A DNA stretch of 27,186 nt, from IMG/VR virus record IMGVR_UViG_3300043036_000338. One strand, written 5' to 3'. The position numbers were made by a program, and so were the translations under genes. Of this stretch, positions 1,643 to 22,100 are shown piece after piece. Origin of the DNA: a virus. Lineage: Duplodnaviria > Heunggongvirae > Uroviricota > Caudoviricetes. Positions within the stretch are counted from its first letter, which is position 1. Each line of letters begins with the position of its first letter. Under the pieces are notes generated by a model, which saw only the letters and a program-made list of their open reading frames with translations, did no database searches and was not told the DNA's origin.

Positions 1643-1975
1643 TTAGATTCTCGTCATTCCTGGAGTTACAGTAACAATTCCTTCAACAACTCGTGTAATT
1701 GTATTGCCTGAGGATGTGATTTCTACATCATACAAATATCTTCCAGGTTCAATAGCAACAGTAGTTGTAGAATTCAGAACAAGAGTAATCTTTCCGCCTG
1801 TGTTATTATGTGATGCTATAAATGTAGTCGCTGATGACGAAGTATAATTCTTTCGCATTTGAGCTGCTACCGTATAACCAGTAAGATTAAACACAGCATT
1901 ATTTGCATCAGTAAGATCAATCGTTGCACTAAAATTTGCACCTTGATCAACAACTAAATTTGCTTTAATAGCCAT
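1643..1975 (-). CDS. Conserved T4-like virion beta-sandwich protein (BppU_N-like fold), 110 aa
   Basis: Motifs DQGANF, NLTGYT..AQMRK and PGRYLYDVEI...TRVVEGIVTVTPG are characteristic of this family. Strong AGGAGG RBS and a late promoter upstream. Confidence 0.75.
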   Translation of the reverse strand: MAIKANLVVDQGANFSATIDLTDANNAVFNLTGYTVAAQMRKNYTSSSATTFIASHNNTGGKITLVLNSTTTVAIEPGRYLYDVEITSSGNTITRVVEGIVTVTPGMTRI

Positions 1976-2002: not shown

Positions 2003-2010
2003 TATTTATA
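2003..2010 (-). promoter_or_regulatory. T4-type late promoter TATAAATA (gp55 sigma)
   Basis: Exact consensus (plus-strand tatttata) in a short intergenic gap directly upstream of an RBS and structural genes. Confidence 0.8.
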
Positions 2011-2013
2011 CAA

Positions 2014-2961
2014 TCATTGTCTGTAATCATTTAAGTCAAAAGTGGTACCATGCATCTTATAAAGATCACGATCATGATTAGTATATACCAAAACTTCAGT
2101 ATCATCAATTAAAAAATCACACGACTTACAATAATCAGGATAGTCACCAGTTCTATGTCGGTTACGTAAATCTTCATATGCCTCACCATACCAGATGTCT
2201 TTAATTGAAGTTGATGATGTATGACCTAACACAGCTTTTTCATCTTGTCCTAGAACTTGGCAACATGGATGAACTGCACCATAGTCACCATTCAGTCCGC
2301 CTGCTCGAATTACAATGTCTGGCGAAAATGGCCGTCCACATGTTTTTATTTTTCCATCTCTTTCATAATCTGGTTTATATACACCTGACCAATTATGCAT
2401 CTTCCAAATTTCAGTCTTAACATTCATTGTATTGACAATGTCAAGATATTTTTCAACTTCATACGGAATATTTGCTTGATCAAGGATAAGATGATATGTA
2501 GAAACTACACATTCAGAATTAGATGTTAGAACATATTGATTTATGTCATTCAGATTTTTAATAACTTGATTAAATGCAAGACTATTCATCCATTCGTGAT
2601 ATGTAGTTGCATCATAACCAATGATACTAAAACGACAATAATCTAATCCTGCATCAATGACCTCTTTCATGAAAGAATCTTTCAGAAGTCTACCGTTTGT
2701 AAATATGAATGCTTTTGCATTATACTTTTTCACGATCTCAACATATCTTGCCAAATCCCTGTTGAGTGTAGGTTCTCCTGAACCTTCAAGATTCACAACT
2801 TTGAGTCCTTGTTCAGCACATTGTGCCACCATATCTTCAAAATGAGATAGTGACATCTTTTTCAAAAAGTCTTTATGTCTTCCTGGATTTGACTGTGGGC
2901 ACATCTGACATGAGTAGTTGCATCCACCATTTATTTCAATTACTGCTCTTTCGATATTCAT
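2014..2961 (-). CDS. Radical SAM protein with C-terminal SPASM/twitch domain (315 aa)
   Basis: CNYSCQMC (CxxxCxxC), GSGEPTL and FTNG motifs. The auxiliary-cluster cysteines are CGRPF, VHPCCQ and YCKSC. Confidence 0.9.
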   Translation of the reverse strand: MNIERAVIEINGGCNYSCQMCPQSNPGRHKDFLKKMSLSHFEDMVAQCAEQGLKVVNLEGSGEPTLNRDLARYVEIVKKYNAKAFIFTNGRLLKDSFMKEVIDAGLDYCRFSIIGYDATTYHEWMNSLAFNQVIKNLNDINQYVLTSNSECVVSTYHLILDQANIPYEVEKYLDIVNTMNVKTEIWKMHNWSGVYKPDYERDGKIKTCGRPFSPDIVIRAGGLNGDYGAVHPCCQVLGQDEKAVLGHTSSTSIKDIWYGEAYEDLRNRHRTGDYPDYCKSCDFLIDDTEVLVYTNHDRDLYKMHGTTFDLNDYRQ

Positions 2962-3568
2962 TTTTTACTCTTTCATATAACTCAAAATCAAGTTGCTGTG
3001 CACTTCTCACAAGGTTTTTTGTAGATTCATCATAAAATTGATCCACCAATTTATGTGTTGGAACAAGTGATGACTGATTATGATGACCAAATGGAACCTT
3101 GACTTCAATTGTATACTTCTGAATTAAGTCTTTGATATGAGAATCTAAAGTATCATAGCACCACCAAGTACCATTGTTCATAAAATTACTTTGAAGTTGC
3201 ATCTGATAAGGTTTAACATCTTGGATCCAACCTTTACCCTTATATAGACGTAACCGAAAATCTCCTATTGATGGTGTTGGTATTTCACCTTGCTTCCATC
3301 TATACAGATAGAGACTAAGAGTGCGCTCGAGTGGTTCACGAACTGTTGCATAAAAGGTATCATCAGACACAGACAAATCATTCTTAATTGTATTTGATTG
3401 AGTATAATGACTGTGTAAACCCGCACTAACATTTTGTGTAATGCCTCTATGATATGTTATAGTATCTTCTGACGATACAACATTATCAATAAGAAACTCA
3501 CGAACAGATGTTGAACCAGTTTTTGGTACATTAATAAATGTTGCTTTAAGTCTATGAATTCGAATCAT
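2936..3568 (-). CDS. PAPS-dependent sulfotransferase (Sulfotransfer_2-like), 210 aa
   Basis: 5'-phosphosulfate-binding loop NVPKTGSTS near the N-terminus and 3'-phosphate-binding motif VREPLERTLSLY. Confidence 0.85.
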   Translation of the reverse strand: MIRIHRLKATFINVPKTGSTSVREFLIDNVVSSEDTITYHRGITQNVSAGLHSHYTQSNTIKNDLSVSDDTFYATVREPLERTLSLYLYRWKQGEIPTPSIGDFRLRLYKGKGWIQDVKPYQMQLQSNFMNNGTWWCYDTLDSHIKDLIQKYTIEVKVPFGHHNQSSLVPTHKLVDQFYDESTKNLVRSAQQLDFELYERVKNEYRKSSN

Positions 3569-4101
3569 TTTATAAGAAACATGTTAACTGTGATTCGATA
3601 TGATCCTGGAATTGATTTATATGCATGCCAAGTAACATTATCAATAGGCGCAAAGATCAATGTGCGATTAGCTTTCCATTCGACTTCAGCCACAAAGTTT
3701 TTATCAGTATCATATAGTAGAGTTCCACGTGATACTTCAGGAAAAAGATATGTCACTGCTGATAAAACTTTGCTCTTAGCTTCATCATGAATGGGATAGC
3801 TGAGGTCATCTAAACAGATATTTACCTCAGTTGCAAGTTCAAGTTTTTTATAATCTCTATATTGTGGAAATTCTTTTAGTATGTCTTCAGTGATTACACG
3901 ACTGCCGATACATTTAGAAGTTTTTGGTAGTTTCCTTATTGGGTTATGTATTCCACCGATCGTAGTTTTCTTACTATGAAGTTTACTACCATTTTTAAGT
4001 TGTCTAATGAAAGTTCTAATTTCGTCACACATCTCTTGAAAAAGAATTGGATCATAATAATCGTCAATAATCATATGTGGCCACGGTGTTTGTATTAACA
4101 T
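3565..4101 (-). CDS. 2OG-Fe(II) oxygenase superfamily protein (178 aa)
   Basis: PWPHMIIDDY N-terminus, YPIHDEAKSKVLS (HxE), GTLLY, distal His in TWHAY and 2OG-binding Arg in RITVN. Confidence 0.8.
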   Translation of the reverse strand: MLIQTPWPHMIIDDYYDPILFQEMCDEIRTFIRQLKNGSKLHSKKTTIGGIHNPIRKLPKTSKCIGSRVITEDILKEFPQYRDYKKLELATEVNICLDDLSYPIHDEAKSKVLSAVTYLFPEVSRGTLLYDTDKNFVAEVEWKANRTLIFAPIDNVTWHAYKSIPGSYRITVNMFLIK

Positions 4102-5033
4102 CCAAATAATTCCTTTGTTCTTTCACCGTTCTTGAATCGAATCATAATTGATTCCATCTTGTCTTCATAGTTAGGATCATCAATATCTATAACAAGCTTG
4201 TGATAATACCAAGAAAGGAATCGCTTTTGATCTTCAATCGGAACGGGTTGAATTAAATCAAGTTCTTCTGGTGATTTAATCATTGGGATTATTTCTGATA
4301 GATCCATTGGATGAAATGTAGCCACTTTTTTTCCAGCTAACATTGCATTTAAACTCACTGCTGAGTCGGCTGAATATATTCTATTAGCATTGGGAATCAA
4401 TGAATCGGTATTGACATTGTCGATGAATATTGAATACTCACTTACTAATCCATCACGCTTATAAACTTCCCATGCTTTTTCACTTGGCATTGATGTAGTT
4501 GGATGAGCTTTAAACAGCGTGTAAATTTTATTCTCTTTAACATATTTTAATACCATTCTACAAACAACATCATCTTTTGGTGCATCTTTTTCAAAATCCC
4601 AATTTGGATTAATATGATTTGTGACTTTAAATTTTGTGATATTCATCTGCATCAAGTAAAGATCATAGGATTCAGGTGTTTCAATTACTGTATTGGGTTG
4701 CATATACCGATTATTTGGCATTGCAAGGAATCGCTCAATTATTCCATCATCAATTGGGTGATCTTTCCAAAGATGATACATTGGCCATCGAGTCACATAA
4801 TCACCATGAGGAGTCATCTTAAACAGTTTATAGTTTGGACTACCGCCACGATATATTAATGTATAATCAAAATACATTGCAATATATGCCTCAGCAAATA
4901 CATACGGTATCTGATGCTTCTCAGATAACCGTTTAATTGATTCAGAGAATTTAAATAAATGAGGAAAGTTTTTTAACTTAAGTGGTTTATCTTTACGAAC
5001 AACTAACCAAGTTTTCCATTGATCATGATACAT
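4095..5033 (-). CDS. GT-B glycosyltransferase-like protein, capsule synthesis KpsS/KpsC-like (312 aa)
   Basis: FKAHP motif followed by DSLIPNANRIYSADSAVSLNAMLAGKKVATF, resembling the KxHP ... S.vG.EA.L.GKPV C-terminal domain of Capsule_synth proteins. Confidence 0.6.
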   Translation of the reverse strand: MYHDQWKTWLVVRKDKPLKLKNFPHLFKFSESIKRLSEKHQIPYVFAEAYIAMYFDYTLIYRGGSPNYKLFKMTPHGDYVTRWPMYHLWKDHPIDDGIIERFLAMPNNRYMQPNTVIETPESYDLYLMQMNITKFKVTNHINPNWDFEKDAPKDDVVCRMVLKYVKENKIYTLFKAHPTTSMPSEKAWEVYKRDGLVSEYSIFIDNVNTDSLIPNANRIYSADSAVSLNAMLAGKKVATFHPMDLSEIIPMIKSPEELDLIQPVPIEDQKRFLSWYYHKLVIDIDDPNYEDKMESIMIRFKNGERTKELFGC

Positions 5034-5541
5034 TTTTTACCCAAAATCCAAATGAGAAGCGAATCTTTTCTGTCCAAATTGTATGCCATAACAAAGGATC
5101 TTTTTGAACAGGAAACTTTCTTACGGTCCAACCACTATTATCTATATCATCTATAATTTGACCATTTTGATTGACATATCTAAAGATAGCTTTACCAAGA
5201 GTAAATGTATAGTAGATTCGATCACCAGGCATATCAGAATTGGTATGCCATCCCATACATGAATTAGCACCATATACAATCAGATTAGTGTTTTCATTAG
5301 CACCGACTAATTCTGCAAGAGGATTTAACTCATGTTTTGGTGCCATAATTGCAAGATGAGTATGTGTACTTCCATCAAGAAAGTAACCACCTGTTAAATC
5401 TCGAGTAGGTAATTCTTGAGCATCAAATAATTCACGCGTCACACTACCAGAAGGAACTCGAGACCACTGATATTGTGTCTTTTGAATATGACTTGAAAGT
5501 GCTTTAATTACATTTTTATTTGGTTCTAATTTTTGAATCAT
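5023..5541 (-). CDS. Putative 2OG-Fe(II) oxygenase / double-stranded beta-helix protein (172 aa)
   Basis: MGWHTNSD (proximal His), LLWHTIW (distal His) and RFSFGF (RxS-type 2OG-binding strand) in the expected order and spacing. Confidence 0.6.
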   Translation of the reverse strand: MIQKLEPNKNVIKALSSHIQKTQYQWSRVPSGSVTRELFDAQELPTRDLTGGYFLDGSTHTHLAIMAPKHELNPLAELVGANENTNLIVYGANSCMGWHTNSDMPGDRIYYTFTLGKAIFRYVNQNGQIIDDIDNSGWTVRKFPVQKDPLLWHTIWTEKIRFSFGFWVKNVS

Positions 5542-5852
5542 ATATTTGCAAGAATTGCATTGATTTCTTCGTCAGGTATTTGCTGATCATAGCCTGCCGA
5601 TAACATCTGAGAATATTCAAACTCTTTTTTTTGTTTAAAAATTTCTTTGATTGCTGGCGTCCAATTTGAAAGATGTGCTTCAATGAGTTTAATTATGCTT
5701 GGATCATACATATCATATGATAAATCTTGCCATCCCATAGGAGTCATTTGAACACAAGAAAATTGAAATGTTATAAGATTATCTAGTTCATTTCGAACAG
5801 TAACTTCAAGATCAAGAGAATCATTGATTATGCTAGTACTAATAATTTTCAT
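5538..5852 (-). CDS. Hypothetical acidic protein (104 aa), possibly a fibre chaperone
   Basis: Clean ORF filling the gap: ATG 2 nt after the upstream stop, ATGA overlap with the downstream gene. No motif recognised. Confidence 0.55.
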   Translation of the reverse strand: MKIISTSIINDSLDLEVTVRNELDNLITFQFSCVQMTPMGWQDLSYDMYDPSIIKLIEAHLSNWTPAIKEIFKQKKEFEYSQMLSAGYDQQIPDEEINAILANI

Positions 5853-5854
5853 TT

Positions 5855-6910
5855 TTATAACTCAAATGTTGATCTAAATACAAGAATTCTAAATGGATCT
5901 GTAATATAAGTATCACTGTCTGTTGCCGTGGCGTCACCAACATATGATATAATACCATCTTCTGTTGCAAGATATACTGCACAATTCTCACCATTAACCC
6001 ACCAACCACCACGATTGCTTATTAATTTTAAAGGTCCAGATGTAAATCCATTAAATTCCACTGCAGCATCACGAGGTGTAGTTTGGACTGCAAAAATAAT
6101 ATCCCATTTTTTTACAGTCGTGCTATAAACTGTTGCTCCTATTGGAGACTGGGCGGTTGTTCCCACTTGTACATAATAGTTTTGAAGATTCCATTTACCT
6201 GGAAGAACGTGTACCATTTGCGCTGAAAACATAAAGGCATTAGCTTTTGTAAAAGTATAACCAAGAGATGTTACTGATGTTAGGTTAGTATTTACTTGGG
6301 CGTAATTTGCCGCATAAGTCAATGAACCACCCATAAAACTATTGTCAATAGTAGTTGGTGTAATTGAACCACCATTTACAGTATATGAACCTAAACCAGC
6401 ACTTTGTCCAACATTGATTCCTACTACAGTAAACGATTTAGACTCTGCCCAAATTCCAATATTTGGCACACTGACTTCACTTGGAAGAACAGACATATTC
6501 ATAGTAGCTGTAATAGATGTTGCAGATAAGTCAAGACCTGTATTGATTGTATATGATATGTTTGAATTTGTTTCTTTACCATATGGGGAACCAATGTTAC
6601 TAAAAAGCCAATTTCTAGTATTTACAATAGTAGTAGCTGAATCTACGTTAATCTGACCAATGATATTAGAAGGTCTTGTGACTGGATAAGTTTTTGCTCG
6701 CACAGTTCCAGGAATGTTATATGCAAGTGTATCTTCATTATAATCAACGAAGTCTATTGAGTTATTTGAACCACCAAATGATACGCGTCCACTAACAATA
6801 GCATCATTTCCGCTCTTGATAACATTAATGCCTTCTCTATTTGCAAAGGTAGTTGATAATGTTTGACCGCTATTTAAAGTAATTGTGTTAGGTGTAAGTG
6901 TAATTGTCAT
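5855..6910 (-). CDS. Orphan beta-rich, probably virion/receptor-binding protein (351 aa)
   Basis: Thr/Ser/Asn/Gly/aromatic-rich with little charge. Lies in the tail operon. No family recognised. Confidence 0.5.
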   Translation of the reverse strand: MTITLTPNTITLNSGQTLSTTFANREGINVIKSGNDAIVSGRVSFGGSNNSIDFVDYNEDTLAYNIPGTVRAKTYPVTRPSNIIGQINVDSATTIVNTRNWLFSNIGSPYGKETNSNISYTINTGLDLSATSITATMNMSVLPSEVSVPNIGIWAESKSFTVVGINVGQSAGLGSYTVNGGSITPTTIDNSFMGGSLTYAANYAQVNTNLTSVTSLGYTFTKANAFMFSAQMVHVLPGKWNLQNYYVQVGTTAQSPIGATVYSTTVKKWDIIFAVQTTPRDAAVEFNGFTSGPLKLISNRGGWWVNGENCAVYLATEDGIISYVGDATATDSDTYITDPFRILVFRSTFEL

Positions 6911-6913
6911 AAG

Positions 6914-7813
6914 TTATCTCCAAACCGCCCAGCCGCCAACAACTGCAGTGCCGGCACTAAATACAGCTGAAATAGGAATGCTTAATTCAGTACCTTGACC
7001 AGTAAGATAACCAGTCCAAATCATATTACTCTCAGCATTATCAGCTATTGGACCGTTTATACCGGTTAAAGTTGGAATACCAGATGCACCATTACACCAT
7101 GCATTGGCAAGAATAACTGAATTGTGTTGAGTATTTAATATTGTTGGATCCCATGTTAATCCACTATCCCTCGTACCTGTAGTATAAGGTATTGGACTGC
7201 TATGATCTTGAATTAACCATATATCTGATCTATATTTACCAACAGTCCCTGATCCAGCAATGGTAACTTCAGCCCTAAAACTTTCTACGGTACCTACAGG
7301 AAATTCATAATACGCAATCCATGAATTTTGATAGCGAGAATTTGCAGAGGAATATGCACCACCTGCAGCAAAAGTTAATGGATATGTACGTGTCTGATCA
7401 GACATTGATCTAAGTAACATACTTTGGATATAATATGTAGATGTCGACAATGCGTTAATAGCTGTGGTAACAACTATTAATTGTGGTCTTGTATATGAAT
7501 TAAGATTAACTACGTTACTGCCTATCCCGTGCACGCCTGGTGCTGTTAGATCGGCCGTACTAGAAGTTCCTGTAAGATAACTAAGTGTAGCCGGGACTTG
7601 TCTATATGGTCTGGAAGTAAATTGTTTTGACGGTATTATAATTCCATTGGTTCCATCAACATTTGAAAAGGCATTTATTCTTGTGCCAGATGTATTTGCA
7701 CTAATACCAGGATCCAAAAACTTAAATTCATTTGGACTGTTAGTAAATGACATTGGATGATTGCTTTCCGACGGAAAGATTGATGGTCCATTTCCGGAAA
7801 CTGATGCTGTCAT
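6914..7813 (-). CDS. Orphan beta-rich, probably virion/receptor-binding protein (299 aa)
   Basis: Composition like the neighbouring 351-aa protein. The C-terminal half alternates beta-strands and ends in GGWAVWR. Lies in the tail operon. Confidence 0.5.
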   Translation of the reverse strand: MTASVSGNGPSIFPSESNHPMSFTNSPNEFKFLDPGISANTSGTRINAFSNVDGTNGIIIPSKQFTSRPYRQVPATLSYLTGTSSTADLTAPGVHGIGSNVVNLNSYTRPQLIVVTTAINALSTSTYYIQSMLLRSMSDQTRTYPLTFAAGGAYSSANSRYQNSWIAYYEFPVGTVESFRAEVTIAGSGTVGKYRSDIWLIQDHSSPIPYTTGTRDSGLTWDPTILNTQHNSVILANAWCNGASGIPTLTGINGPIADNAESNMIWTGYLTGQGTELSIPISAVFSAGTAVVGGWAVWR

Positions 7814-7814
7814 G

Positions 7815-8168
7815 TTACACTACTTTCAAGCCTGCCGGTTGAACCAGCATAAGTTCCTCTGGTGTAGTTGCGGCTTCAATTACGGGATCACTCGGCGCAT
7901 CGCGTAATAATTGTTTTGCTGCTATGATAGGTGCAGTATTTGCACCAGTTTCAAGTGCTTTCATAAACTCTGTGTCAAGACGTTGAAGTTCTGGAACACG
8001 CGCTGCGCGGATCTTGGTTCTCCAAATTTCACGGGCCTTGACCATATCAACATCAATTGACATAGAGGTACCGTCAGCCTTCCATGCATTACGAAAGATT
8101 CTGTCTTCTGGTGTTTTCCACTGTGAGGTGTCAAGTAGACGTCCATCGATGTTAATAATAGCTGTCAT
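7815..8168 (-). CDS. Tail-associated helical protein, tail-fibre-assembly-chaperone-like (117 aa; start corrected to ATG 8168)
   Basis: DMVKAREIWRTKIRAAR.PELQRLDTEFMKALE...KQLLRDAP motif. The ATG at 8168 forms an ATGA overlap and has GGAG 7 nt upstream, whereas the track start at 8183 is a TTG. Confidence 0.7.
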   Translation of the reverse strand: MTAIINIDGRLLDTSQWKTPEDRIFRNAWKADGTSMSIDVDMVKAREIWRTKIRAARVPELQRLDTEFMKALETGANTAPIIAAKQLLRDAPSDPVIEAATTPEELMLVQPAGLKVV

Positions 8169-8563
8169 TGTTTTAGTCTCCAAGCGTTACGCCATTCTCT
8201 TGTTTCTGGTAATTGCGCTCGTTTAACGATTGCAAATCTTGTTATGTTTGATTGAGTGTCAGCCCATACTCTTTGAGGAAGGTCTTTTATAATAAGATAC
8301 TCAATTGCTTGTTCTTCTGTTAGTGGTCCGATTCTTTGAGCATTCCAATGTTTTGGTTCACATTCCCAACTAAATATTTTACCAGGATTATTTTTTGTCC
8401 ATTCTTCTTCATATTCACGATCCTCAATATATGCATCAATATTTGGAAGATGTCCTCCTTCAAGTGCAAAATGCATAAACTCTGGTGTCGGTATCATAAC
8501 TTGTACTGGTGCATCAGGTGTTAAAGGATCTTCAAATAGTACAACATAATCAGTATAGTACAT
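8165..8563 (-). CDS. Conserved phage tail-cassette protein (132 aa)
   Basis: VVLFEDP...APVQVMIP, GPLTEEQAIEYLIIKDLP.RVW and R.WRNAWR motifs, which I recognise from small tail cassettes of aquatic phages. Overlaps with genes on both sides. Confidence 0.6.
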   Translation of the reverse strand: MYYTDYVVLFEDPLTPDAPVQVMIPTPEFMHFALEGGHLPNIDAYIEDREYEEEWTKNNPGKIFSWECEPKHWNAQRIGPLTEEQAIEYLIIKDLPQRVWADTQSNITRFAIVKRAQLPETREWRNAWRLKQ

Positions 8564-8931
8564 TAAACAATTACCGCAATATTTGCATAAAGTGAATCAA
8601 CCAAACCGCCAGCATCTGTAGAAACGGATATATTTGCAAGTGAGGTAGATTGACCATATAATGTAAGAATAGTCGCAGAGGTGACAGCAGTTGCACGGCT
8701 AGCCGTTCCTGCTAATACAAAGTTAGCGGAGGTCAATGCAGCAGTAAAGTTTGGAGCATAAAGACCTATACCATTATCGGTAATTGTAGATATATTGAAT
8801 GAACTACGAACTGTTGGCACACCTGAGCTTGCATTAAAGTTCACCCATGCTTTTGCTGAACCCCTAATCGCGTTTGTTGAAGTGGTGCTATTTGTGCCGT
8901 CAGAGATATTGGTTACGACAAGAGTACTCAT
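8563..8931 (-). CDS. Minor tail/fibre protein with AKAWVNFN domain (122 aa)
   Basis: MSTL...GSAKAWVNFN...VRSSFNISTITDNG.G.Y..NFT motif of phage minor tail proteins. AAGGA RBS upstream. Confidence 0.7.
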   Translation of the reverse strand: MSTLVVTNISDGTNSTTSTNAIRGSAKAWVNFNASSGVPTVRSSFNISTITDNGIGLYAPNFTAALTSANFVLAGTASRATAVTSATILTLYGQSTSLANISVSTDAGGLVDSLYANIAVIV

Positions 8932-9117: not shown

Positions 9118-11244
9118 TTACTCCTTTGACATGATATTATTTATATCAGTTTTGATTGAATCAATTTCATTTTTAACATCTTTTAAAGCCTCAATAATAA
9201 GACCCATCAAGTTTGCATATGCAACTGATTTGATCCCATCTTTATCTTCAGTAACTGCTTCAGGAATTACAACTTCAACTTCTTGTGCAATCAAACCAAT
9301 TTTGCGTTCTAGATAACCAATTTTATTAAAATATACACCACGCATAGACGTTACTTTATCAAGAGCATTACTGACAGTAATTACATTCTCTTTTAGTCGA
9401 GCATCAGAGTTTGATGTAATATCGCCACCGGCGGTAAAGTTACCTGTTGGAATATCAAATGTAAAACGATCTACAGCAGTCCCTGTTGTGTCTCTATAAA
9501 CAATTTGACCAGCTGATGAAATGTCTGTGTAAAAGTTACCAGTTCCATTTTGAATTTGTAAATGAGAACCTGTATGACGAATATTAGAATCATTATCAGT
9601 GCCAAGATTAAACTGATCACTATCATTAGTTTTAAGACCAGCATCAAAAATAACTTGTCCTGTGAAAGTAGCACCAGAAGTATTAGCTTTTCCACTTAAT
9701 GTTGTCTCAATATTAACACCTGCAATTGATAGTGTACTAAAATTACCAGTGTTTGCAGTAGTGGAACCTATTGCTGTCCCGTTAATTGTTCCGCCAGTGA
9801 TGGTTACAGAAGCCAATATTCCAACAGAAGTTAAACTAGAACTTACAATACCTGCACCCAAAGTGGTACCATTTAAAACTGAAGTACCATTAATCTTATA
9901 TGACTTACCAGTTAATAGATTTAAATCTTCAGATGATGTCCATGCGTTTGTTGCACTTATCCAATTAAATGTTTTGTCAGTTGCACCTTTAAGTGTAATA
10001 CCACCACCATCAGCAGTAATATCGGTTGGTGTAACAACAGAACCCAATTCAATATTTTTATCATCAATACTTAAAGTGGTAGAATTAATAGTTGTAGTAG
10101 TGCCATTGATTGTTAAATTACCAGTGACAATCATGTTGCCACCGATTGCTGTATTACCATTTAAAGTGACATCTGATAATATTGGTGATGTTCCAAATAC
10201 AAGTAAACCAGATCCTGTTTCATCTGAAATAACACCGGCAAGTTGTGCTGATGTTGTAGCAGCAAATTGTGCCAAGTTACCAGTTGTTGCAAGTGTGCCA
10301 GAAACTGGTAATGTTACATTGGTAGCACCGGTTTGAGTCAATGTTAAAGCAAAGTTACCAGCAGTTGTAAGACTATTTGCCGTAGCAATATTTCCACCAA
10401 CAGCAATTGTTTTAGAATTAGCAATTAATGACCCAACAGTTGCTGTGCCAGTAATAGTAACATTTGAACTAAATAGTGTATTTGCATTGACATCTAATCT
10501 ATCAGTACTTGCATTACCAATTGTTGTGTTACCTTGTGAATCAAATAATGAATATACTGTTGATGTATTAGCTAATGCTGTATTAACACTGAAACTTACA
10601 TTTGAGGCTAGTGATGTCGTACCAGTTACAATAAGATTGGCAACTGAAAGAGTACCACTTATATCAGTATTTGTACCGGTTAGTATCACATTAGCAGTAA
10701 ATGTTGATGCTGCAATTACATTTAACTTATCAGCACCTGCATCACCAATAGTGGTATTAGCACCTACAATTGTTACATTAGAACTAAAGATTGAATTCGA
10801 ATTAACAAAAAATGTACCGGTATTTACGGTTGTATTAGCAGTATCAATCCGAATAGTTTTACCAACACCACCATTCAATGTAATATTGGATGAAGCATTA
10901 AAATTATTTGCACTAACTGTAACACTATTGGCGGCAGTAATATCAACATTACCAGTAGTAGTAAATAAAGCATTTGAGGTGATTGTTAAGTTATTTGGCG
11001 TGGTAACAGTACCACCGCGTAATGCAGAACTTACAGCAATTGTGTTAGCAGTGACAACACCTTGAATTGCTAGGTTACCTGTAGTTAATCCGGCGTTTGT
11101 GGTATTTGGTTCAGCACCAGTTGCTGTGGTAACCGTAACCACAATTCTTCCCATGTCATCTCGAACTTGGTTTGTCTTATCAATCCAACCAGCAAAAGTG
11201 TCAGTTGTTATAACATTGGCACCTAGATATGTATTCTTTGACAT
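9118..11244 (-). CDS. Tail fibre with C-terminal peptidase S74 intramolecular chaperone (708 aa)
   Basis: Beta-helix-type repeats in the body. The C-terminus SDARLKENV...ALDKV...RGVYF...IGLIAQEVE.VIPEAV...VAYANL.GLIIEALK followed by a coiled coil is a textbook S74 chaperone. Confidence 0.9.
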   Translation of the reverse strand: MSKNTYLGANVITTDTFAGWIDKTNQVRDDMGRIVVTVTTATGAEPNTTNAGLTTGNLAIQGVVTANTIAVSSALRGGTVTTPNNLTITSNALFTTTGNVDITAANSVTVSANNFNASSNITLNGGVGKTIRIDTANTTVNTGTFFVNSNSIFSSNVTIVGANTTIGDAGADKLNVIAASTFTANVILTGTNTDISGTLSVANLIVTGTTSLASNVSFSVNTALANTSTVYSLFDSQGNTTIGNASTDRLDVNANTLFSSNVTITGTATVGSLIANSKTIAVGGNIATANSLTTAGNFALTLTQTGATNVTLPVSGTLATTGNLAQFAATTSAQLAGVISDETGSGLLVFGTSPILSDVTLNGNTAIGGNMIVTGNLTINGTTTTINSTTLSIDDKNIELGSVVTPTDITADGGGITLKGATDKTFNWISATNAWTSSEDLNLLTGKSYKINGTSVLNGTTLGAGIVSSSLTSVGILASVTITGGTINGTAIGSTTANTGNFSTLSIAGVNIETTLSGKANTSGATFTGQVIFDAGLKTNDSDQFNLGTDNDSNIRHTGSHLQIQNGTGNFYTDISSAGQIVYRDTTGTAVDRFTFDIPTGNFTAGGDITSNSDARLKENVITVSNALDKVTSMRGVYFNKIGYLERKIGLIAQEVEVVIPEAVTEDKDGIKSVAYANLMGLIIEALKDVKNEIDSIKTDINNIMSKE
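9859..10122 (-). repeat. Fibre module copy B, paralogous to 588-848
   Basis: 64/88 identical residues by hand alignment, with many synonymous differences. Confidence 0.9.
10447..10761 (-). repeat. Two 29-aa internal fibre repeats (10675-10761 and 10447-10533)
   Basis: ANTTIGDAGADKLNVIAASTFTANVILTG versus GNTTIGNASTDRLDVNANTLFSSNVTITG, 15/29 identical. Confidence 0.75.
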
Positions 11245-16796: not shown

Positions 16797-19127
16797 TTAA
16801 AATTCAATTATTATTTTTACTTTTTCAGTTTGTGAAGTACTACGAGCAATTGGAGTAAATGTTTCAACATATAATATTTCGCCAGAACCATCAACTACTG
16901 AATTCAAAGTATTAACTTTTCCGGTAAGTTTAGCTGTTGCACCATTTATTTGCCCTACAAATGTATTTATAACGCCTGACGGATCATCAGAAAGATTAAA
17001 TACACCTTGAACACCAGTTAAACCAATTACAGTACTTGTTGTATTACTACCATTCAGGCTGTGAATATATCCTAAACCATTTGCTTGGAAAGTATTATCA
17101 ACATTTGATACTGACGCAACAACTGTATTTCCAGATGTTTTAATAATATTGATAGTACTATTTCCAACTAAAAATGTGCCAAAATTAGGATTAATTGTTA
17201 TTGTATTTGCACCACGATCAATAATAATACCATTTGCTGTCACTGTAGAATCATTGTATTGTGTAATTAATGCACCTTCACTGAACGAAAATGCTGAAGT
17301 ATTTGTTGTTAACTTTACAACGTCTGAACTAATTAACTGTAATCCTGTCTGAAGAACTAATTCATCAAGTTCAAAACCTTTATCAGCAGGACCTGTATTT
17401 GTGATCACAACATTGTAGATTTCACGTTGATCAAAAGTAGTCAATGATCTATCAATTGCTGAAACACTTGCGGTAGTATTACTTGTACTTCCAGTAATGT
17501 AGTTTACAGTACTATTTCCTGTTCCAAAAAATCCATCTATGTTGGTAAGTCGTAATGTTGTACCGTCACGATTTGAAACTTGACCTGTTGCCCCAGTGTT
17601 AGCTTGAACAATATATTCGCCTGCCGTAAAGTTAGCTGCAACACTTGCCGATAATGTCAATTGAACATTTGCAAATAATGGATCTTTAATAATTGATATT
17701 TTTCTAAAATCATTTGTTGCTGGAATTGTACTTGATTCCGTATTTGCAAATGACATACCAATACCAATTCTATTTGCATATAACTCATTAATTACATCAG
17801 AACCGTGACCACCTTGTGGAGAAATGATTGCTCTTGCCTTTGCAGTTGATGTATTAATAACACCATTTGAAGTACCAGTAGAAATGTTACCAGTGTTTGC
17901 AATAATTGTAATATTTGCAAATGTATAATTTGATCCTGAGTTAATAATTTCAATATCTGAAATTGAGTTAGCTGATGGATTTACAATGGCAATTGCTTTT
18001 GCATTTGATCCATCACCATTAATGACTACACGTGGACCAATTTCAAATACAGAACTTACATCTGGAACTGTTTGTAATGGTGAATCTAATAGAACACGGC
18101 GAGTATCACCAGTAGAATAATATTCTGTGATATTTCTTAACTGACCTGCACCTAAACCTGAACGAATATAAAATGAGTTATTTTTATAAAAGCCGGCATT
18201 TGGATTTAATGATGTCGTAAGCGGTGTTGCTGAAAGTATTGTTCTATTAGTAGTTGTTGTAACACCAATAATATTTGCGCCTGGATTAAATGATCTATCA
18301 ACATTTGTAATTCTTAAAGTATTATTTGAGGTAAATACGGCAACAATAACACCATTTGATGTTTTATTAGTTGCGGTATTTAGTGATGTAACTTTTTCTT
18401 CAGTAAATCCTGCCACACTTGATAATGTCACATCATATTCAGAATAACGTTCTGATGAAATAGAATATAATAATGTATTACCACCAACAGTGGCCTCCTT
18501 AATGGTGCCTGTTGCATAACTATTGTATTCTGAACCTGGGTTTGTAATAAGAATTGTATTAATTGAACCAACCACAGCATTAGATGTCACATTGGCATTT
18601 GGAACAACTGGAATATATTCTGCTGTGGCAAATTTGGAGTATGTAGATGCATCCACAGAAAACATATATTTCCACTGATACCCGTCATTTGTCACATAAG
18701 TTTCATCATCTGCCGATGTTTCTGAAAATAATGGTTGACTTATTGATTGAGACCTGTTATTATTATTCAGACACTTAAATATATGATAATTTGTACTTTC
18801 AGGTGATACGACAAAAAAGTTCTTTGTCTCTAAATTGGCCACTGTATCATCATACATATCATATATTGTACCAGAAGTCCAAGAAACATTTCGAATCATA
18901 TGCTTAATATCAGCAGGTGTAATATTTTTACCAAAGATAAGATCATCGTATAGATTATAATGGTTTTCTATAATAGAATTCACAGGATCTGGTGGGGAAC
19001 TATCATTTGTAAAAGGTGTGCTTTTATGGGCACCAATATAATAGATTGAATTAGCAGATTCATTCACAGACTCAAGAAATTGAGCAGCGGCATGTGTACG
19101 AAAATTACTTACAATAAGACGAGACAT
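16797..19127 (-). CDS. gp8: Baseplate wedge subunit gp8-like (776 aa, enlarged by insertions)
   Basis: WTSGTIYDMYDD, YHIFKCLNNN, TNDGYQWKYMF, ISPQGGHGSD...EL and FRKISIIKDP, ending GEILYVE...RS..Q.E.VKIIIEF. Real ATG at 19127 with AAGGA RBS. Confidence 0.85.
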   Translation of the reverse strand: MSRLIVSNFRTHAAAQFLESVNESANSIYYIGAHKSTPFTNDSSPPDPVNSIIENHYNLYDDLIFGKNITPADIKHMIRNVSWTSGTIYDMYDDTVANLETKNFFVVSPESTNYHIFKCLNNNNRSQSISQPLFSETSADDETYVTNDGYQWKYMFSVDASTYSKFATAEYIPVVPNANVTSNAVVGSINTILITNPGSEYNSYATGTIKEATVGGNTLLYSISSERYSEYDVTLSSVAGFTEEKVTSLNTATNKTSNGVIVAVFTSNNTLRITNVDRSFNPGANIIGVTTTTNRTILSATPLTTSLNPNAGFYKNNSFYIRSGLGAGQLRNITEYYSTGDTRRVLLDSPLQTVPDVSSVFEIGPRVVINGDGSNAKAIAIVNPSANSISDIEIINSGSNYTFANITIIANTGNISTGTSNGVINTSTAKARAIISPQGGHGSDVINELYANRIGIGMSFANTESSTIPATNDFRKISIIKDPLFANVQLTLSASVAANFTAGEYIVQANTGATGQVSNRDGTTLRLTNIDGFFGTGNSTVNYITGSTSNTTASVSAIDRSLTTFDQREIYNVVITNTGPADKGFELDELVLQTGLQLISSDVVKLTTNTSAFSFSEGALITQYNDSTVTANGIIIDRGANTITINPNFGTFLVGNSTINIIKTSGNTVVASVSNVDNTFQANGLGYIHSLNGSNTTSTVIGLTGVQGVFNLSDDPSGVINTFVGQINGATAKLTGKVNTLNSVVDGSGEILYVETFTPIARSTSQTEKVKIIIEF

Positions 19128-19137
19128 CAATTATTCC

Positions 19138-22100
19138 TTAGGCTGATGTTATACTACTATTGGCAATGGCAATACTTAAATTAGCTGTTGATCTTTTTTC
19201 AACACTACCAAATATTTCATTACCAGCAACATGCAATATCTTTTTAACAATATCTTCATATCTATTTATAGACAATCCTGAAATGATGTCATACGAATAT
19301 TCTTGATAGTATCTATTATCCTGAATCTTCTTTTCAGAGTTCAGATGTGATGTTGTTGTTTTCCAATAACCTTCACCAATACCTTGATTCAAAATGTTTG
19401 TAGTACCTTCAAGTAAAAACTGATTGTTAACACTTTCAAGAGTGACAACACCATCTTGTACATATCCAAAACCAGAATCAATAACCTCAAGTGAAGTTGC
19501 AATACCATTTGCAACAATAACATTTGATGATATAATTGCATTATCACCAAGAACACTTGAAGTACTATCGGCCTGAACATTTAAAATATTTGCACTAGCA
19601 TTTGAATCAACACCAGTAATAGCAATTCCAGCCGAAAATGCAACATTAAATGATGTTCTGTGAACTTTAAGTATTTTTCCAATAGTGTCATATTGTAATA
19701 CTTTTCCTTTAGCAGATGTACTCTGTTCAAGGTTTTCACCAACAATAAATGATCCAATCACATTGTTTAATTCAAGATAAAAATCACCTCTTGCATATGA
19801 AGCAATATATGGATTATATACTCTTGTAAATGGATTTGCGTTATAGTTAATACCTGGATTTATTTTTCCTAGTGAACCAATAGAACCAATAGTAAAGTTT
19901 TCAGATGTAAGAAGACTAGTAATAGTATCTGTAATCTCACCTTGTGGATTCTTGATAAATCCATAACCATAATTCATCACTGGTGATATGCTAGCAACTG
20001 TGCCAGACGTTGCAGGAAGCGTAAGACTAGGTGAAGTGTAGTAACCTTCGCCAGGATCTGTTACAGTCACTGTAGTGATCACACCTGAACCATTTGTAGT
20101 GATATATGCATTTGCCTGTAACCATGGATTGCCACCGCCTTGACCACCGCCCGTAAATGTAATTAAACCACCATTTGCATATAAAGTGCCACCAGTATTT
20201 ACAGTTACTGTTTGTACAAATCCAATACCAGATTCTTGACCATTCAATAATACATTCAGGAATGGAGTATTGGCTGTATTATTTGCACCTACAAGATCAG
20301 TATTTAAAGCAACAGTTTCAGCATTTTCCAATACACCTACTTTAAAATTAGCACCAGTACCTGTTCTTATTCCTGTTATAACTGTGTTTAGCTCAATGAT
20401 AGTACCGTTTGCATATCGTGGAGGTGATATTAATAATTCACGATTTGTTTCAACATAAAAGTTACCTGCTTCATTATAGAAAAATGGTTGTGTATTTCCA
20501 TAGATACCAATTGCTATTGTATTCTGCCCAACAATAAATCCATTTGCATATGCTTTTGTTATGTTATTCTTACCTGCAGGGGCTCCAATAACGCCATTTG
20601 CACTATTATTACTATTTAGATATACAGATGCTGCACCAGTATTTGTATTTGATGAAATTGTAGCAATAAGTTTGGTGCGATCACCACGAATTTTATTGCC
20701 ATCATTAAAGACACCATATACAATTCTTGCACTCACATTTGCTCCAGTAACATTAGTTACCAAACCTCTTGCTCCAGTATTTGACACCGTAACGGAACTA
20801 ACTGAACAGTTCACAGTTGGATTACTGGTTTTAATTAGTGATTGAGTTGTTACAAATGTTCCCCACGATTCTTTAACAATAATTGTATTTGCAGTGCTTG
20901 ATTCCACTAAACCAAATGCACTACTAGTAATTGTATTTGACACAGGTTCACGAATTGTTTGACTGACGGCATCATTAACATTAAAACCAGTATTTGAAGA
21001 TACTGATAATGTAACAATACTTTGCTCATCAATATATTCACCGATGGAATATGCTGTTGCTGAACTTAAAGTAAATTTAGTTTGATCACCAAATGTTGTA
21101 TCACCGAGTAATTGAACAGTCACTAATGAATTGGCAGATGGTGTTGTGATAATATCACCAGTAGCATTTGTATTAGCAACTGAAATAATAATTGAGTTTG
21201 CCACCACAGTATTTGCAGCATTTCTACCAGACAGATAGTCACCAACATTGGCGCTATTGACATTTGTTGCGGATGCAAGATATATTTTTTCAATTCGTTG
21301 CAGAACTGGTTCATATAATGAATATGAAAGATTTGCGTTATTGACATTTAAAAGTGCTGTTGAAACATATACGTTTGTTGTATTGGTTGTTGTATATCCA
21401 TAACCGCCATCGACAAGTTTAAAGTCAACACGACCAGTAGCATTCTCAATACCAGTCACACGAACCTTACCGTGTTTTGCTTCACTGCTTATAATATCAA
21501 GAATGTCACCAATTTTATTATCTTTGCCACCAGATATGATATTAATAGAAGTCAATGATCCATTGACTGATGGGGCTCCATTGAGTGAAACACTATCAGT
21601 AATTTGTTCACCATAAATAAAATTTCCCTTAATTGAACTTAGATATACAATATCAATAAGTTTCCCATTAACACGTTTAGTAATAATACTTTCAACAAAA
21701 GCTTTAGTTCCAGTAATTGAACCAGTAATTTGTTTATTAATGAATGTTTTTGTTCTGGGACTTTTTGTAACTTCAATATAAATTTGATTGTACCATAAAG
21801 AATCCGACGGCTTGATAATATCATCACCTGGATAATACACATCAATTTCTTGATTATAAAGAAGTTTCATAAGCAACTCTAATGAGTACTTAGAACCTTT
21901 TGTTGAATATAGGTCAAGAATATGTTTGATTGCAAATCGCTTATCAGTTGTGATAATTGATGGAAAGTCAGCCAAGAATTCATTTTTGAAATGTGATATG
22001 AATGAATCCAAAGACTCATCAATATCACTTAATTCAAACATTTGACGTGATAATTTTATCGAATACTTGTCAGTTGTTTCAAGAAACTCATAATAGGCTT

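Follow-up and report, generated by a model that had tools for sequence, protein, structure and literature searches.

Six overlapping genes beside the tail-fibre genes of an uncultured, aquatic, T4-like phage appear to encode a late-expressed, soluble tailoring system of the tail-fibre module, which most likely decorates the fibre or adhesin of the virion (we put the probability at about 0.5). The prime acceptor candidates are the Thr/Ser-rich products of the genes immediately upstream, foremost among them one of 351 aa. If this is true, the host-contacting part of the virion would carry a strongly anionic glycan that varies among lineages. Fibre decoration is favoured over remodelling of the host surface by the same enzymes. 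The DNA analysed, hereafter the window, is a single stretch of 27,186 nucleotides.

The cassette and its fibre neighbours

The six minus-strand ORFs (positions 2014-5852) that the original prediction had described as chained by overlaps are real, lie at exactly the coordinates given for them and were for the most part correctly named. Successive genes overlap, in 5′ to 3′ order, by 4, 11, 7, 4 and 26 nt, and all six are free of internal gaps and their products of membrane segments. GC content is 0.32-0.35 in the cassette and 0.30-0.35 in the gp6 region, a match that agrees with the view that the cassette is not a recent import. The cyanophage framing was wrong; the closest matches of the baseplate protein are in Sinorhizobium phages phiM12 and phiN3 and Caulobacter phage Cr30.

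The cassette is embedded among tail genes, as had been proposed. The upstream fibre block is headed by a 708-aa tail fibre (9118..11244, minus strand) whose C-terminus is a Peptidase_S74 intramolecular chaperone domain, and on this side there is also a gene for a phrog_11355 fibre protein. Downstream lie a 324-aa structural protein and a 110-aa LtfC-like beta-sandwich fibre protein (1643..1975, minus strand), assigned by phrog_1084 and phrog_3304, PF23926 (E 1e-4) and synteny, whose gene also comes after the cassette in four related loci (L002, L003, L007 and L023). Nearest upstream are a 299-aa Ser/Thr/Asn/Gly-rich fibre-like protein of no known family (6914..7813, minus strand), with a homolog in the equivalent position in L002, and the 351-aa Thr/Ser/Asn-rich fibre-like protein (5855..6910, minus strand), whose gene ends 2 nt from the first cassette gene. 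This last protein, a candidate acceptor or receptor-binding tip, had no match in Pfam and PHROG searches, and an iterative search found relatives in the equivalent position in L002, L003, L005 and L007. Equivalents of the upstream proteins that were tested in other loci are called tail fibres by PHROG.

Two T4-type late-promoter-like words, TATAAATA, on the coding strand bracket a gap-free unit (8931..2014). One (9138..9145, minus strand) is inside the 3′ end of the 708-aa fibre gene, ahead of a 186-nt gap, and the other (2003..2010, minus strand) is in the 38-nt gap between the cassette and the LtfC-like gene; as late promoters they are no more than suggestive, since the window contains the word no more often in total than chance would give.

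Enzymes and a predicted adaptor

The central enzyme is a 312-aa modified GT-B glycosyltransferase, or GT (4095..5033, minus strand), with the architecture of the beta-Kdo transferases KpsC and WbbB. Its Pfam Capsule_synth score falls just below threshold (E 1.7e-3), and the family is confirmed by fold: the AF2 model (pLDDT 87.6) has WbbB and KpsC as best Foldseek matches (E ~1e-6) and Capsule_synth proteins as AFDB matches, and VIA-align gave Z 12.9 against KpsC 6mgb (rmsd 3.7 A over 239 residues) and Z 11.3 against WbbB. The motifs of beta-Kdo transferases, HP and QXXXD, are as defined in PMC10148158. The KpsS/KpsC-like GT-B call stands as to fold and HP motif (H177-P178, kept at 91-93% across the family), but the nucleophile motif of KpsC and WbbB is absent, the equivalent stretch reading Q129-M-N-I-T133 and being variable within the family. 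Since this catalytic Asp of the solved relatives is missing, donor and mechanism are putative; HP conservation, the KpsC/WbbB fold and a CTP_transf_3 cytidylyltransferase (E 3e-34) inside the related L037 cassette point to a CMP-sugar donor. The GT family was absent from one genome each of 185,579 prokaryote species in a pattern-limited scan and from 50,697 phage records; in these searches its members came from viral and metagenome sequence alone.

On either side of the GT gene is a gene for a protein with the double-stranded beta-helix (DSBH) fold of 2OG oxygenases. That of 178 aa (3565..4101, minus strand) is a canonical P4H-like 2OG-Fe(II) oxygenase with H105-x-E107, H159 and R169; its 2OG-FeII_Oxy_3 sequence match is weak, and the assignment is confirmed by the motif, whose triad is conserved in 35 sequences, and by Atlas structures (features score 0.96 and TM 0.73-0.83 against 2OG-FeII_Oxy_3 clusters). 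The 172-aa protein (5023..5541, minus strand) had been called 2OG-oxygenase-like, and its fold is indeed confident (AF2 pLDDT 93.9; Foldseek matches to P4H, PHD2 and AlkB at E ~4e-5; oxygenases as AFDB matches). Its metal motif, however, is HxN in place of HxD (H99-x-N101, with H153 and R161), invariant in 73 sequences of a family with 593 cluster representatives and no match in sequence searches of Pfam and PDB. HxN may signal a non-standard activity or none, so any activity of this protein is putative. In other proteins the HxN domain is fused to Sulfotransfer_2, FkbM methyltransferase or GNAT domains.

The remaining two enzymes scored above Pfam thresholds. The 210-aa Sulfotransfer_2-family sulfotransferase (2936..3568, minus strand; 26.9 bits against a cut-off of 22; phrog_3347) has a PKTGST 5′-phosphosulfate loop and an RxPxxRxxS 3′-phosphate motif, both conserved in 16 sequences. 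The 315-aa radical SAM enzyme (2014..2961, minus strand; Pfam Radical_SAM and SPASM) has CX3CX2C and GGE motifs and, in a twitch/SPASM-type auxiliary-cluster domain, five conserved C-terminal Cys. Its best PDB sequence matches, weak ones, are BtrN and BlsE (E 3e-9 and 1e-5), so that by sequence its nearest solved relatives are sugar-modifying. Motifs, profiles or folds bear out the names 2OG oxygenase, PAPS sulfotransferase and radical SAM-twitch enzyme.

The first cassette gene encodes an acidic protein of 104 aa (5538..5852, minus strand). It is no orphan, as had been supposed, since relatives hold the matching position at other loci. We propose that it is an adaptor whose C-terminal amphipathic helix (residues ~89-104) docks on the 172-aa protein. 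The helix motif occurs in 21 of 40 positional equivalents and in 34 of 1746 other small ORFs, and a complex model of the two proteins scored 0.68 (best of three controls, 0.00); 58 of 80 solved complexes attained that mark, as did 2 of 110 mismatched pairs. Contact agreement among runs was at least 67%, partner pLDDT was at least 76, and the modelled interface is exactly the conserved helix.

Conservation of the core and the target of the enzymes

In about 45 loci from IMG/VR and metagenomes the genes of one trio, for HxN protein, GT and 2OG oxygenase, follow one another in the same order. That number overstates independent observations because kin share gene order; the loci form 14 lineages with GT identity below 50% between them. 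Genes for a T/S/G-rich product and a small protein always lie immediately 5′ of the trio, so that co-occurrence and synteny with fibre genes, earlier proposed as a check, proved positive. Pairwise distances of the three families correlate (rho 0.54-0.62). Even at loci lacking the GT, the HxN family is encoded within fibre modules, which also favours the tie to fibres. Carriers include myovirus loci and complete 36-kb records with podovirus-like genes (internal virion protein and amidase matches), in which the cassette takes up ~5 kb of the genome. The cassette is therefore coherent and co-inherited, as predicted, but the supposedly complete set reduces to this core, with the sulfotransferase and radical SAM enzyme as accessories among variable add-ons that elsewhere include an aminotransferase, a methyltransferase, extra GTs and one CMP-sugar cytidylyltransferase. 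A coherent glycan-type chemistry, as first suggested, is upheld by the CMP-sugar-type GT, the carbohydrate-type sulfotransferase and the BtrN/BlsE-like enzyme, and the add-ons in relatives agree.

In the fibre-decoration scheme, the variable N-terminal part of the adaptor would match a particular fibre, while its conserved C-terminal helix, as the complex model suggests, would hold the HxN protein. Both oxygenase-fold proteins would hydroxylate the acceptor protein or the sugar. The HP-motif GT would take from the host pool, and transfer, an acidic sugar in CMP-activated form, either Kdo or a related ulosonic acid. Host PAPS would supply the sulfate added by the sulfotransferase, and the BtrN-like enzyme would oxidise a sugar hydroxyl, a step that in aminotransferase-carrying relatives would open the way to an amino sugar.

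Several observations count against fibre decoration besides the HxN motif and the missing catalytic Asp of the GT. Lys and Pro are the usual targets of P4H-like hydroxylases, and the upstream fibre-like proteins, all T/S/G-rich, are low in both. They form three families, between which homology was not detectable, and have no conserved site in common; no acceptor motif was found, nor were collagen-like repeats in the window or its close relatives. The solved GT relatives act on glycolipids and glycans, not proteins (PMC10148158).

The last point would suit enzymes that act on the LPS, O-chain or capsule of the infected cell, adding for example a sulfated Kdo-like cap, and so block superinfection or keep progeny from sticking to debris, with the fibre-side location merely reflecting a plastic 'host recognition cluster'. 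KpsC and WbbB, the closest solved GT relatives, build or cap surface glycans, GT8-like LPS-type transferases are present in two related cassettes, and pelagimyophage cassettes with GT and radical SAM genes have been read as O-chain modifiers (PMC7029224). Those published islands likewise show a fibre-adjacent position, which counts against fibre decoration. We nevertheless consider host-surface remodelling the less likely of the two, though a serious rival: the inspected cassettes have no membrane segments and no lipid-carrier, flippase or export genes, and the position after a fibre gene and small protein is fixed over 14 lineages, among them 36-kb genomes with podovirus-like genes. One HxN relative (P0160), encoded directly 3′ of a collagen-like GxK fibre, is fused to a Phage_tail_APC fibre chaperone domain, and the predicted docking partner, the 104-aa protein, co-varies with the fibre. 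A late structural unit also suits superinfection exclusion poorly, a weak point.

The chaperone fusion also fits a reading that we regard as improbable, in which fibres mature without a glycan coat, the oxygenase-fold proteins and their partner being assembly or quality-control factors (hydroxylation or cross-linking for folding), or in which the target is another soluble one, the set converting a sugar nucleotide or modifying the small protein itself with no product displayed on the virion. The HxN family and its small partner do occur in fibre modules lacking any GT, the small protein sits at the usual place of fibre chaperone genes, and the ambiguous HxN motif would be accommodated. Where there is a GT, however, both oxygenase-fold proteins are inherited along with it, active-site residues are conserved in all the enzymes, and the add-ons (sulfotransferase, aminotransferase, methyltransferases, cytidylyltransferase and extra GTs) are those expected for glycan building and variation. 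That unrelated accessory genes simply accumulated in a plastic region, without common function, is very improbable: accessory content does differ from locus to locus, but core order is kept over 14 lineages with correlated divergence, the gene overlaps fit translational coupling, core and accessory domains are fused in other proteins, and two neighbouring products (104 and 172 aa) are predicted to bind.

Comparison with known systems

Whole-chain architecture and a Ser-rich donor-binding stretch align the GT with KpsC (GT107) and WbbB (GT99), retaining beta-Kdo transferases in which the shared HP motif protonates the CMP leaving group; unlike these, it lacks the QXXXD Asp nucleophile, scores below the Pfam threshold and, in the searches above, turned up only in viral and metagenome sequence. 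The DSBH fold of the 172- and 178-aa proteins is that of P4H-type oxygenases (PHD2, Pseudomonas P4H, PF13640), and the 178-aa protein has their full HxD/E...H...R set; the invariant HxN of the 172-aa family, sub-threshold Pfam scores of both proteins and candidate acceptors poor in Pro and Lys set the present pair apart. Radical SAM core and C-terminal cluster domain both align with BtrN and BlsE, which act on aminocyclitols or sugars. BtrN pairs with the aminotransferase BtrS, and an aminotransferase gene adjoins the radical SAM gene in three related loci (L009, L037 and L040), although the window itself has none.

The host recognition cluster of pelagimyophages and cyanomyophages, for which modification of the host O-chain was proposed (Zaragoza-Solas et al. 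2020, PMC7029224), also belongs to aquatic T4-like phages, where it forms a hypervariable tail-fibre region with GTs and radical SAM cassettes. That account describes general gene content, not the conserved adaptor-HxN-GT-2OG core or its occurrence in 36-kb genomes with podovirus-like genes, and draws no link to the fibre protein.

Viruses that glycosylate their virions use other enzyme families; here a CMP-sugar-type GT is combined with two oxygenase-fold proteins, a putative sulfation step and a radical SAM enzyme. Chloroviruses glycosylate their capsids with virus-encoded enzymes, and in mimivirus collagen is hydroxylated and glycosylated, a 2OG hydroxylase being coupled to a GT. Mycobacteriophage virions are reported to be glycosylated by phage-encoded enzymes (Freeman et al. 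2023, as cited by others). The cassette shares with these systems soluble transferases encoded beside structural genes, and there the targets are the viruses' own structural proteins.

Gene layout and transcription of the cassette

The original prediction had placed a cassette of six overlapping genes at 2014-5852, and ORF calling confirmed the observation. On the (-) strand, in order of transcription, the genes encode a 104-aa protein (5852-5538), a 172-aa protein (5541-5023), a 312-aa glycosyltransferase (GT; 5033-4095), a 178-aa 2OG oxygenase (4101-3565), a 210-aa sulfotransferase (3568-2936) and a 315-aa radical SAM enzyme (2961-2014). Neighbors overlap by 4 to 26 nt at each junction, and together with five more genes upstream the cassette forms a run from 8931 to 2014 in which the widest gap is 3 nt. 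Cassette GC content (0.32-0.35) is like that of the remainder of the window. No hydrophobic stretch long enough for a membrane helix was found in any of the six products.

Fibre genes flank the cassette. Upstream are a 708-aa fibre with a Peptidase_S74 domain, a fibre protein assigned to phrog_11355 and two Ser/Thr/Asn-rich proteins of 299 aa (6914-7813) and 351 aa (5855-6910); downstream, a 110-aa LtfC-like protein is followed by further fibre-like proteins. Two small non-fibre-like proteins, one of 122 aa (phrog_20196) and one of 132 aa (without family), are encoded at 7815-8563 amid the upstream fibre genes, a pair that is kept in a related locus, L002.

Four instances of the T4 late-promoter word TATAAATA lie in the window, all of them on the coding strand. 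Two (9138-9145 and 2003-2010) bracket the run 8931-2014; since the total is not above chance, they are compatible with a late transcript of the run and do not demonstrate one. The other two (16964-16971 and 19263-19270) fall within the 3′ ends of large baseplate/fibre genes, 130-190 nt ahead of the next gene start, a placement that would fit internal late promoters.

The window belongs to a 57.9-kb IMG/VR viral contig with a completeness estimate of 34%. The phage is a T4-like myovirus and, contrary to the cyanophage framing adopted earlier, not a cyanophage. Its gp6 is most similar to the gp6 of two Sinorhizobium phages, phiM12/phiN3 (45%), and of the Caulobacter phage Cr30 (39%).

Enzymes of the cassette

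The 172-aa protein had no match in Pfam, PHROG, NCBIfam or PDB sequences, and a profile of its family (593 cluster representatives) found nothing real in Pfam or PDB sequences. Its model, built from the alignment (pLDDT 93.9), is the double-stranded beta-helix (DSBH) of 2OG oxygenases; the nearest solved structures by Foldseek are P4H, PHD2 and AlkB (E ~4e-5, TM 0.5-0.58), and AFDB gave likewise. Throughout the family the distal His (H153) and the Arg that binds 2OG (R161) do not vary. In the first motif, H99-T100-N101, the HxD/E carboxylate ligand is replaced by Asn (42 of 43 sequences in one alignment, 100% of 73 in another). As modeled, this HxN protein has the DSBH fold of the 2OG-oxygenase superfamily with its distal His and Arg, and the HxN oxygenase-fold family is new.

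The 178-aa protein is a canonical P4H-like 2OG oxygenase, as judged by its facial triad (H105 and H159 in 35/35 sequences, E/D107 in 33/35) and by its Atlas structure (TM 0.73-0.83 against PF13640 clusters). R169, which binds the 2OG C5 carboxylate, is present in 32 of the 35; the Pfam score is below threshold (14.5 against a cut-off of 27). The two oxygenase-fold proteins were considered as close paralogs, an idea rejected after hhalign gave no similarity.

The GT model (pLDDT 87.6) aligns by VIA-align with KpsC (Z 12.9, 239 residues, rmsd 3.7 Å, model residues 1-292) and WbbB (Z 11.3, 233 residues), whereas ordinary GT-B enzymes align over just ~125-130 residues, in the C-terminal domain alone. 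Foldseek searches of PDB and AFDB concur. Like KpsC and WbbB, the GT has an N-terminal alpha/beta domain, a helical subdomain and a C-terminal Rossmann domain, a modified GT-B arrangement. The QXXXD motif of beta-Kdo transferases sits after the first strand of the C-terminal domain; the corresponding position of the GT, after strand 123-128, reads Q129-M-N-I-T133, as judged by motif position and not by residue superposition. No acidic residue is conserved at ≥85% anywhere in the 45-sequence GT family, and the stretch 134-149 is variable and of low model confidence. The HP motif is kept (H177 in 93% and P178 in 91% of the 45 members).

Retaining beta-Kdo transferases are defined by the HP motif, whose His protonates the CMP phosphate, and by an invariant QXXXD with an Asp nucleophile (PMC10148158). 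Since the HP motif is present and the QXXXD Asp absent, the GT appears to be kin to these enzymes in its modeled fold while, judging by sequence, it is not a member of their class and their covalent mechanism should be unavailable to it. It differs from GT99/GT107 (KpsC/WbbB) in lacking their QXXXD nucleophile and in missing the Pfam gathering score (Capsule_synth, PF05159: 18.3 bits against 20). The donor is probably a CMP-sugar. The most conserved word of the GT alignment, scanned against 185,579 prokaryote genomes, found no relative, a pattern-limited result that is not proof of absence; with that reading of 'viral-only', the GT is a viral-only HP-motif glycosyltransferase without known nucleophile. 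A nucleophile-less HP-motif transferase is new.

The 210-aa protein matches Sulfotransfer_2 (PF03567; 26.9 bits against a cut-off of 22) and no solved structure among PDB sequences. On its motifs it is classed as a Sulfotransfer_2 enzyme with both PAPS-binding elements, a 5′-phosphosulfate loop (P15-K-T-G-S-T20) and a 3′-phosphate motif (R77-E-P-L-E-R-T-L-S85), in which K16, S19, R77, P79 and S85 are 87-100% conserved in 16 sequences.

The 315-aa protein exceeds the Pfam cut-offs for Radical_SAM (52.4 bits) and SPASM (36.6 bits), matches no NCBIfam model at cut-off, and carries the CX3CX2C (C14, C18, C21) and GGE (G60-x-G62-E63) motifs. Five C-terminal cysteines (C208, C233, C234, C278, C281) would be a better fit to one auxiliary cluster, twitch-like, than to two; each motif residue is 88-97% conserved in 36 sequences. 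The best PDB sequence match, BtrN (E 2.7e-9), spans the core and twitch domains, and BtrN and BlsE, the best solved relatives by sequence, both act on sugar-like substrates. BtrN works with BtrS, oxidation preceding transamination. In relatives of the cassette a class I/II aminotransferase is an add-on adjoining the radical SAM gene (loci L009 and L037), and by analogy the pair would fit such an oxidize-then-transaminate route. The small protein as a RiPP precursor, with the radical SAM enzyme as its maturase, was rejected, since the supposed maturase is an accessory member of the cassette and its closest kin act on sugars. NCBIfam offered no name for the first five cassette proteins.

A conserved core in divergent phages

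A search of 5.8 billion proteins yielded 16 GT relatives, on whose contigs this gene order recurs across divergent phages, invariably beside fibre genes. Scanning viral contigs with the 172-aa family gave 80 loci, among which the GT is found in ~45, the second oxygenase in 32, the radical SAM enzyme in ~24 and the sulfotransferase in 7; viral contigs scanned with the GT or the sulfotransferase as single queries gave no match. The recurring order is a Thr/Ser/Gly-rich protein, a small protein (78-148 aa), the HxN protein, one to three GT copies, the 2OG oxygenase and variable enzymes, with the GT and 2OG oxygenase positions exchanged in one lineage. The trio of HxN protein, GT and 2OG oxygenase spans 14 lineages (GT identity <50%), and its three families have correlated pairwise distances (rho 0.54-0.62). 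Conserved synteny and co-occurrence with fibre genes, which had been proposed as a check, are thus borne out by a recurrent order in ~45 GT-bearing loci and 14 lineages.

Add-ons in relatives include extra sulfotransferases, FkbM and other methyltransferases, GT8-like transferases and, in L037, a CTP_transf_3 cytidylyltransferase (E 3e-34). The order in L037 (7995-13307) is HxN protein, GT, 2OG oxygenase, sulfotransferase, class I/II aminotransferase, radical SAM enzyme, CTP_transf_3 and methyltransferase, a gene content that has the look of a complete pathway to an activated, aminated and methylated acidic sugar. This cytidylyltransferase of the L037 cassette independently favors a CMP-activated donor, and it is the sole indirect hint that the GT may transfer Kdo from CMP-Kdo. 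The window's own contig, 34% complete, yielded neither a CMP-sugar synthetase nor an APS kinase; because donor-synthesis genes are absent from this incomplete contig, CMP-Kdo and PAPS are assumed to be supplied by the host. The locus counts and the variable add-ons make the sulfotransferase and radical SAM enzyme, which the original prediction had stressed, accessory (7 and ~24 of 80 loci) to a core of two oxygenase-fold proteins and the GT.

The cassette also appears in 36-kb records that are 98-100% complete, occupying roughly 5 kb, a large share of such a genome for an accessory function. Matches to an internal virion protein and an amidase among its neighbors suggest that these carriers are podoviruses. 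Two such records (G004/G005, loci L027/L034) encode, between fibre genes, the HxN protein, GT, 2OG oxygenase, two radical SAM enzymes and a second 2OG oxygenase.

Among 50,697 phage records, queried at the DNA and the protein level, nothing matched the cassette, the GT or the sulfotransferase; the exceptions were two weak matches to the 172-aa protein, one to the 178-aa protein, and a 61% identical radical SAM gene in Phage C48C1, the sole record there with a close relative of this enzyme. In the 97-101 kb region of this Kyanoviridae genome (OQ984149.1) the gene has as neighbors a Nol-like carbamoyltransferase, a gene annotated as a glycosyltransferase and a methyltransferase; the remaining cassette genes are absent. 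Two of the cassette families, HxN (~600 clusters) and the HP-motif GT, fall below Pfam threshold and have no PHROG or NCBIfam model.

Link to fibres and function

PHROG assigns the upstream proteins that were tested to tail fibres. More distant HxN members also sit in fibre modules that lack a GT, where they follow a fibre-like protein and a ~160-180-aa partner. HxN domains are fused to sulfotransferase, FkbM methyltransferase or GNAT domains and, in the protein P0160, to a Phage_tail_APC fibre chaperone domain; the gene preceding P0160 encodes a collagen-like G-x-K fibre. On a TARA contig (L016, 1-2655), a collagen-like fibre with long G-x-K runs and a Gly-rich C-terminal domain precedes a 357-aa HxN and Phage_tail_APC fusion.

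The small proteins belong to several families that vary with the kind of fibre encoded upstream. An acidic amphipathic helix at the C terminus is shared, its motif being carried by 21/40 of them, against 34/1746 other small ORFs (the loci are not mutually independent). Predicted as a complex, the 104-aa and 172-aa proteins scored 0.68, with 0.00 for the best of three controls; the mark for this score is reached by 58/80 solved complexes and 2/110 mismatched pairs. At least 67% of contacts agree between runs, partner pLDDT is at least 76, and the predicted interface sets exactly this C-terminal helix of the 104-aa protein (89-104) on the N-terminal helices (12-31) and part of the sheet of the HxN protein. 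The prediction, a model confidence and not a measurement, supports binding of the two proteins; this predicted contact is new. Low model confidence kept Atlas look-ups of the 104-aa and 351-aa proteins from being informative. Together, the fibre-module setting, the chaperone fusion, the shared helix and the complex prediction suggest that the small protein is an adaptor tying the enzymes to a given fibre.

Searches for an acceptor site found none. The fibre-like proteins upstream fall into three clusters that show no profile-profile similarity to one another and lack a conserved site, so a shared acceptor domain or motif was rejected. They are poor in Lys and Pro, and collagen-type Lys/Pro hydroxylation was discarded here after no G-X-Y runs were found in the window, the genome or close relatives; ~7 other loci have collagen-like fibres directly upstream of the HxN gene. 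The oxygenases may hydroxylate an acceptor protein (Asn/Asp or another residue) or a sugar. Five loci (L014, L037, L038, L040 and L048) encode, upstream of the small protein, proteins of 236-277 aa with 18-22% Gly and repeated GGxG runs. Adhesins of the T4 gp38 type have glycine-rich receptor-recognition domains, which these proteins recall by analogy.

We put the probability that the cassette decorates a virion fibre protein at about one half. The proposal of fibre decoration or host remodeling is in this respect partly supported: the fibre association stands, and the acceptor site was not found. Tentatively, we offer a more specific mechanism, in which an adaptor directs a self-glycosylation machine to the phage's adhesins; the module would be widespread among uncultured aquatic myoviruses as well as 36-kb phages whose genes look podovirus-like. 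With its N-terminal part the small, fast-evolving adaptor would recognize a particular receptor-binding fibre, and its conserved C-terminal helix would recruit the unusual HxN oxygenase-fold enzyme, which would bring the viral-only CMP-sugar transferase, the second oxygenase and swappable sulfo-, amino- and methyl- enzymes. The host-contacting tip would gain a lineage-specific anionic glycan, by which host range or decoy evasion could vary at a second level beyond the fibre sequence.

That the enzymes instead remodel the host surface seems less likely to us, yet this is how glycan and tailoring genes in the fibre regions of aquatic phages have been understood to date, and pelagimyophage cassettes that combine GT and radical SAM genes in the fibre region were interpreted in print as modifiers of the host O-chain (PMC7029224). 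A role in fibre maturation or on some other soluble target is improbable, and a chance association of the genes has very little probability. Should the cassette instead put a sulfated acidic sugar on the receptor-binding proteins of the phage itself, host recognition in abundant uncultured phages would depend on chemistry that genome-based prediction of host range ignores. The idea is directly testable through the predicted contact of small protein and HxN protein, and the gene set is small enough to be co-expressed with a candidate substrate.

Fibre-side tailoring islands are already known in the literature, and their kind is not new. With mycobacteriophage-type virion glycosylation the cassette, known here from genes alone, shares a GT beside structural genes. 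The host recognition cluster of pelagimyophages is a hypervariable fibre region with GT and radical SAM genes (PMC7029224), and the window's fibre region also holds both. Our literature search found no described cassette of such make-up; what is new relative to these systems is the defined conserved core.
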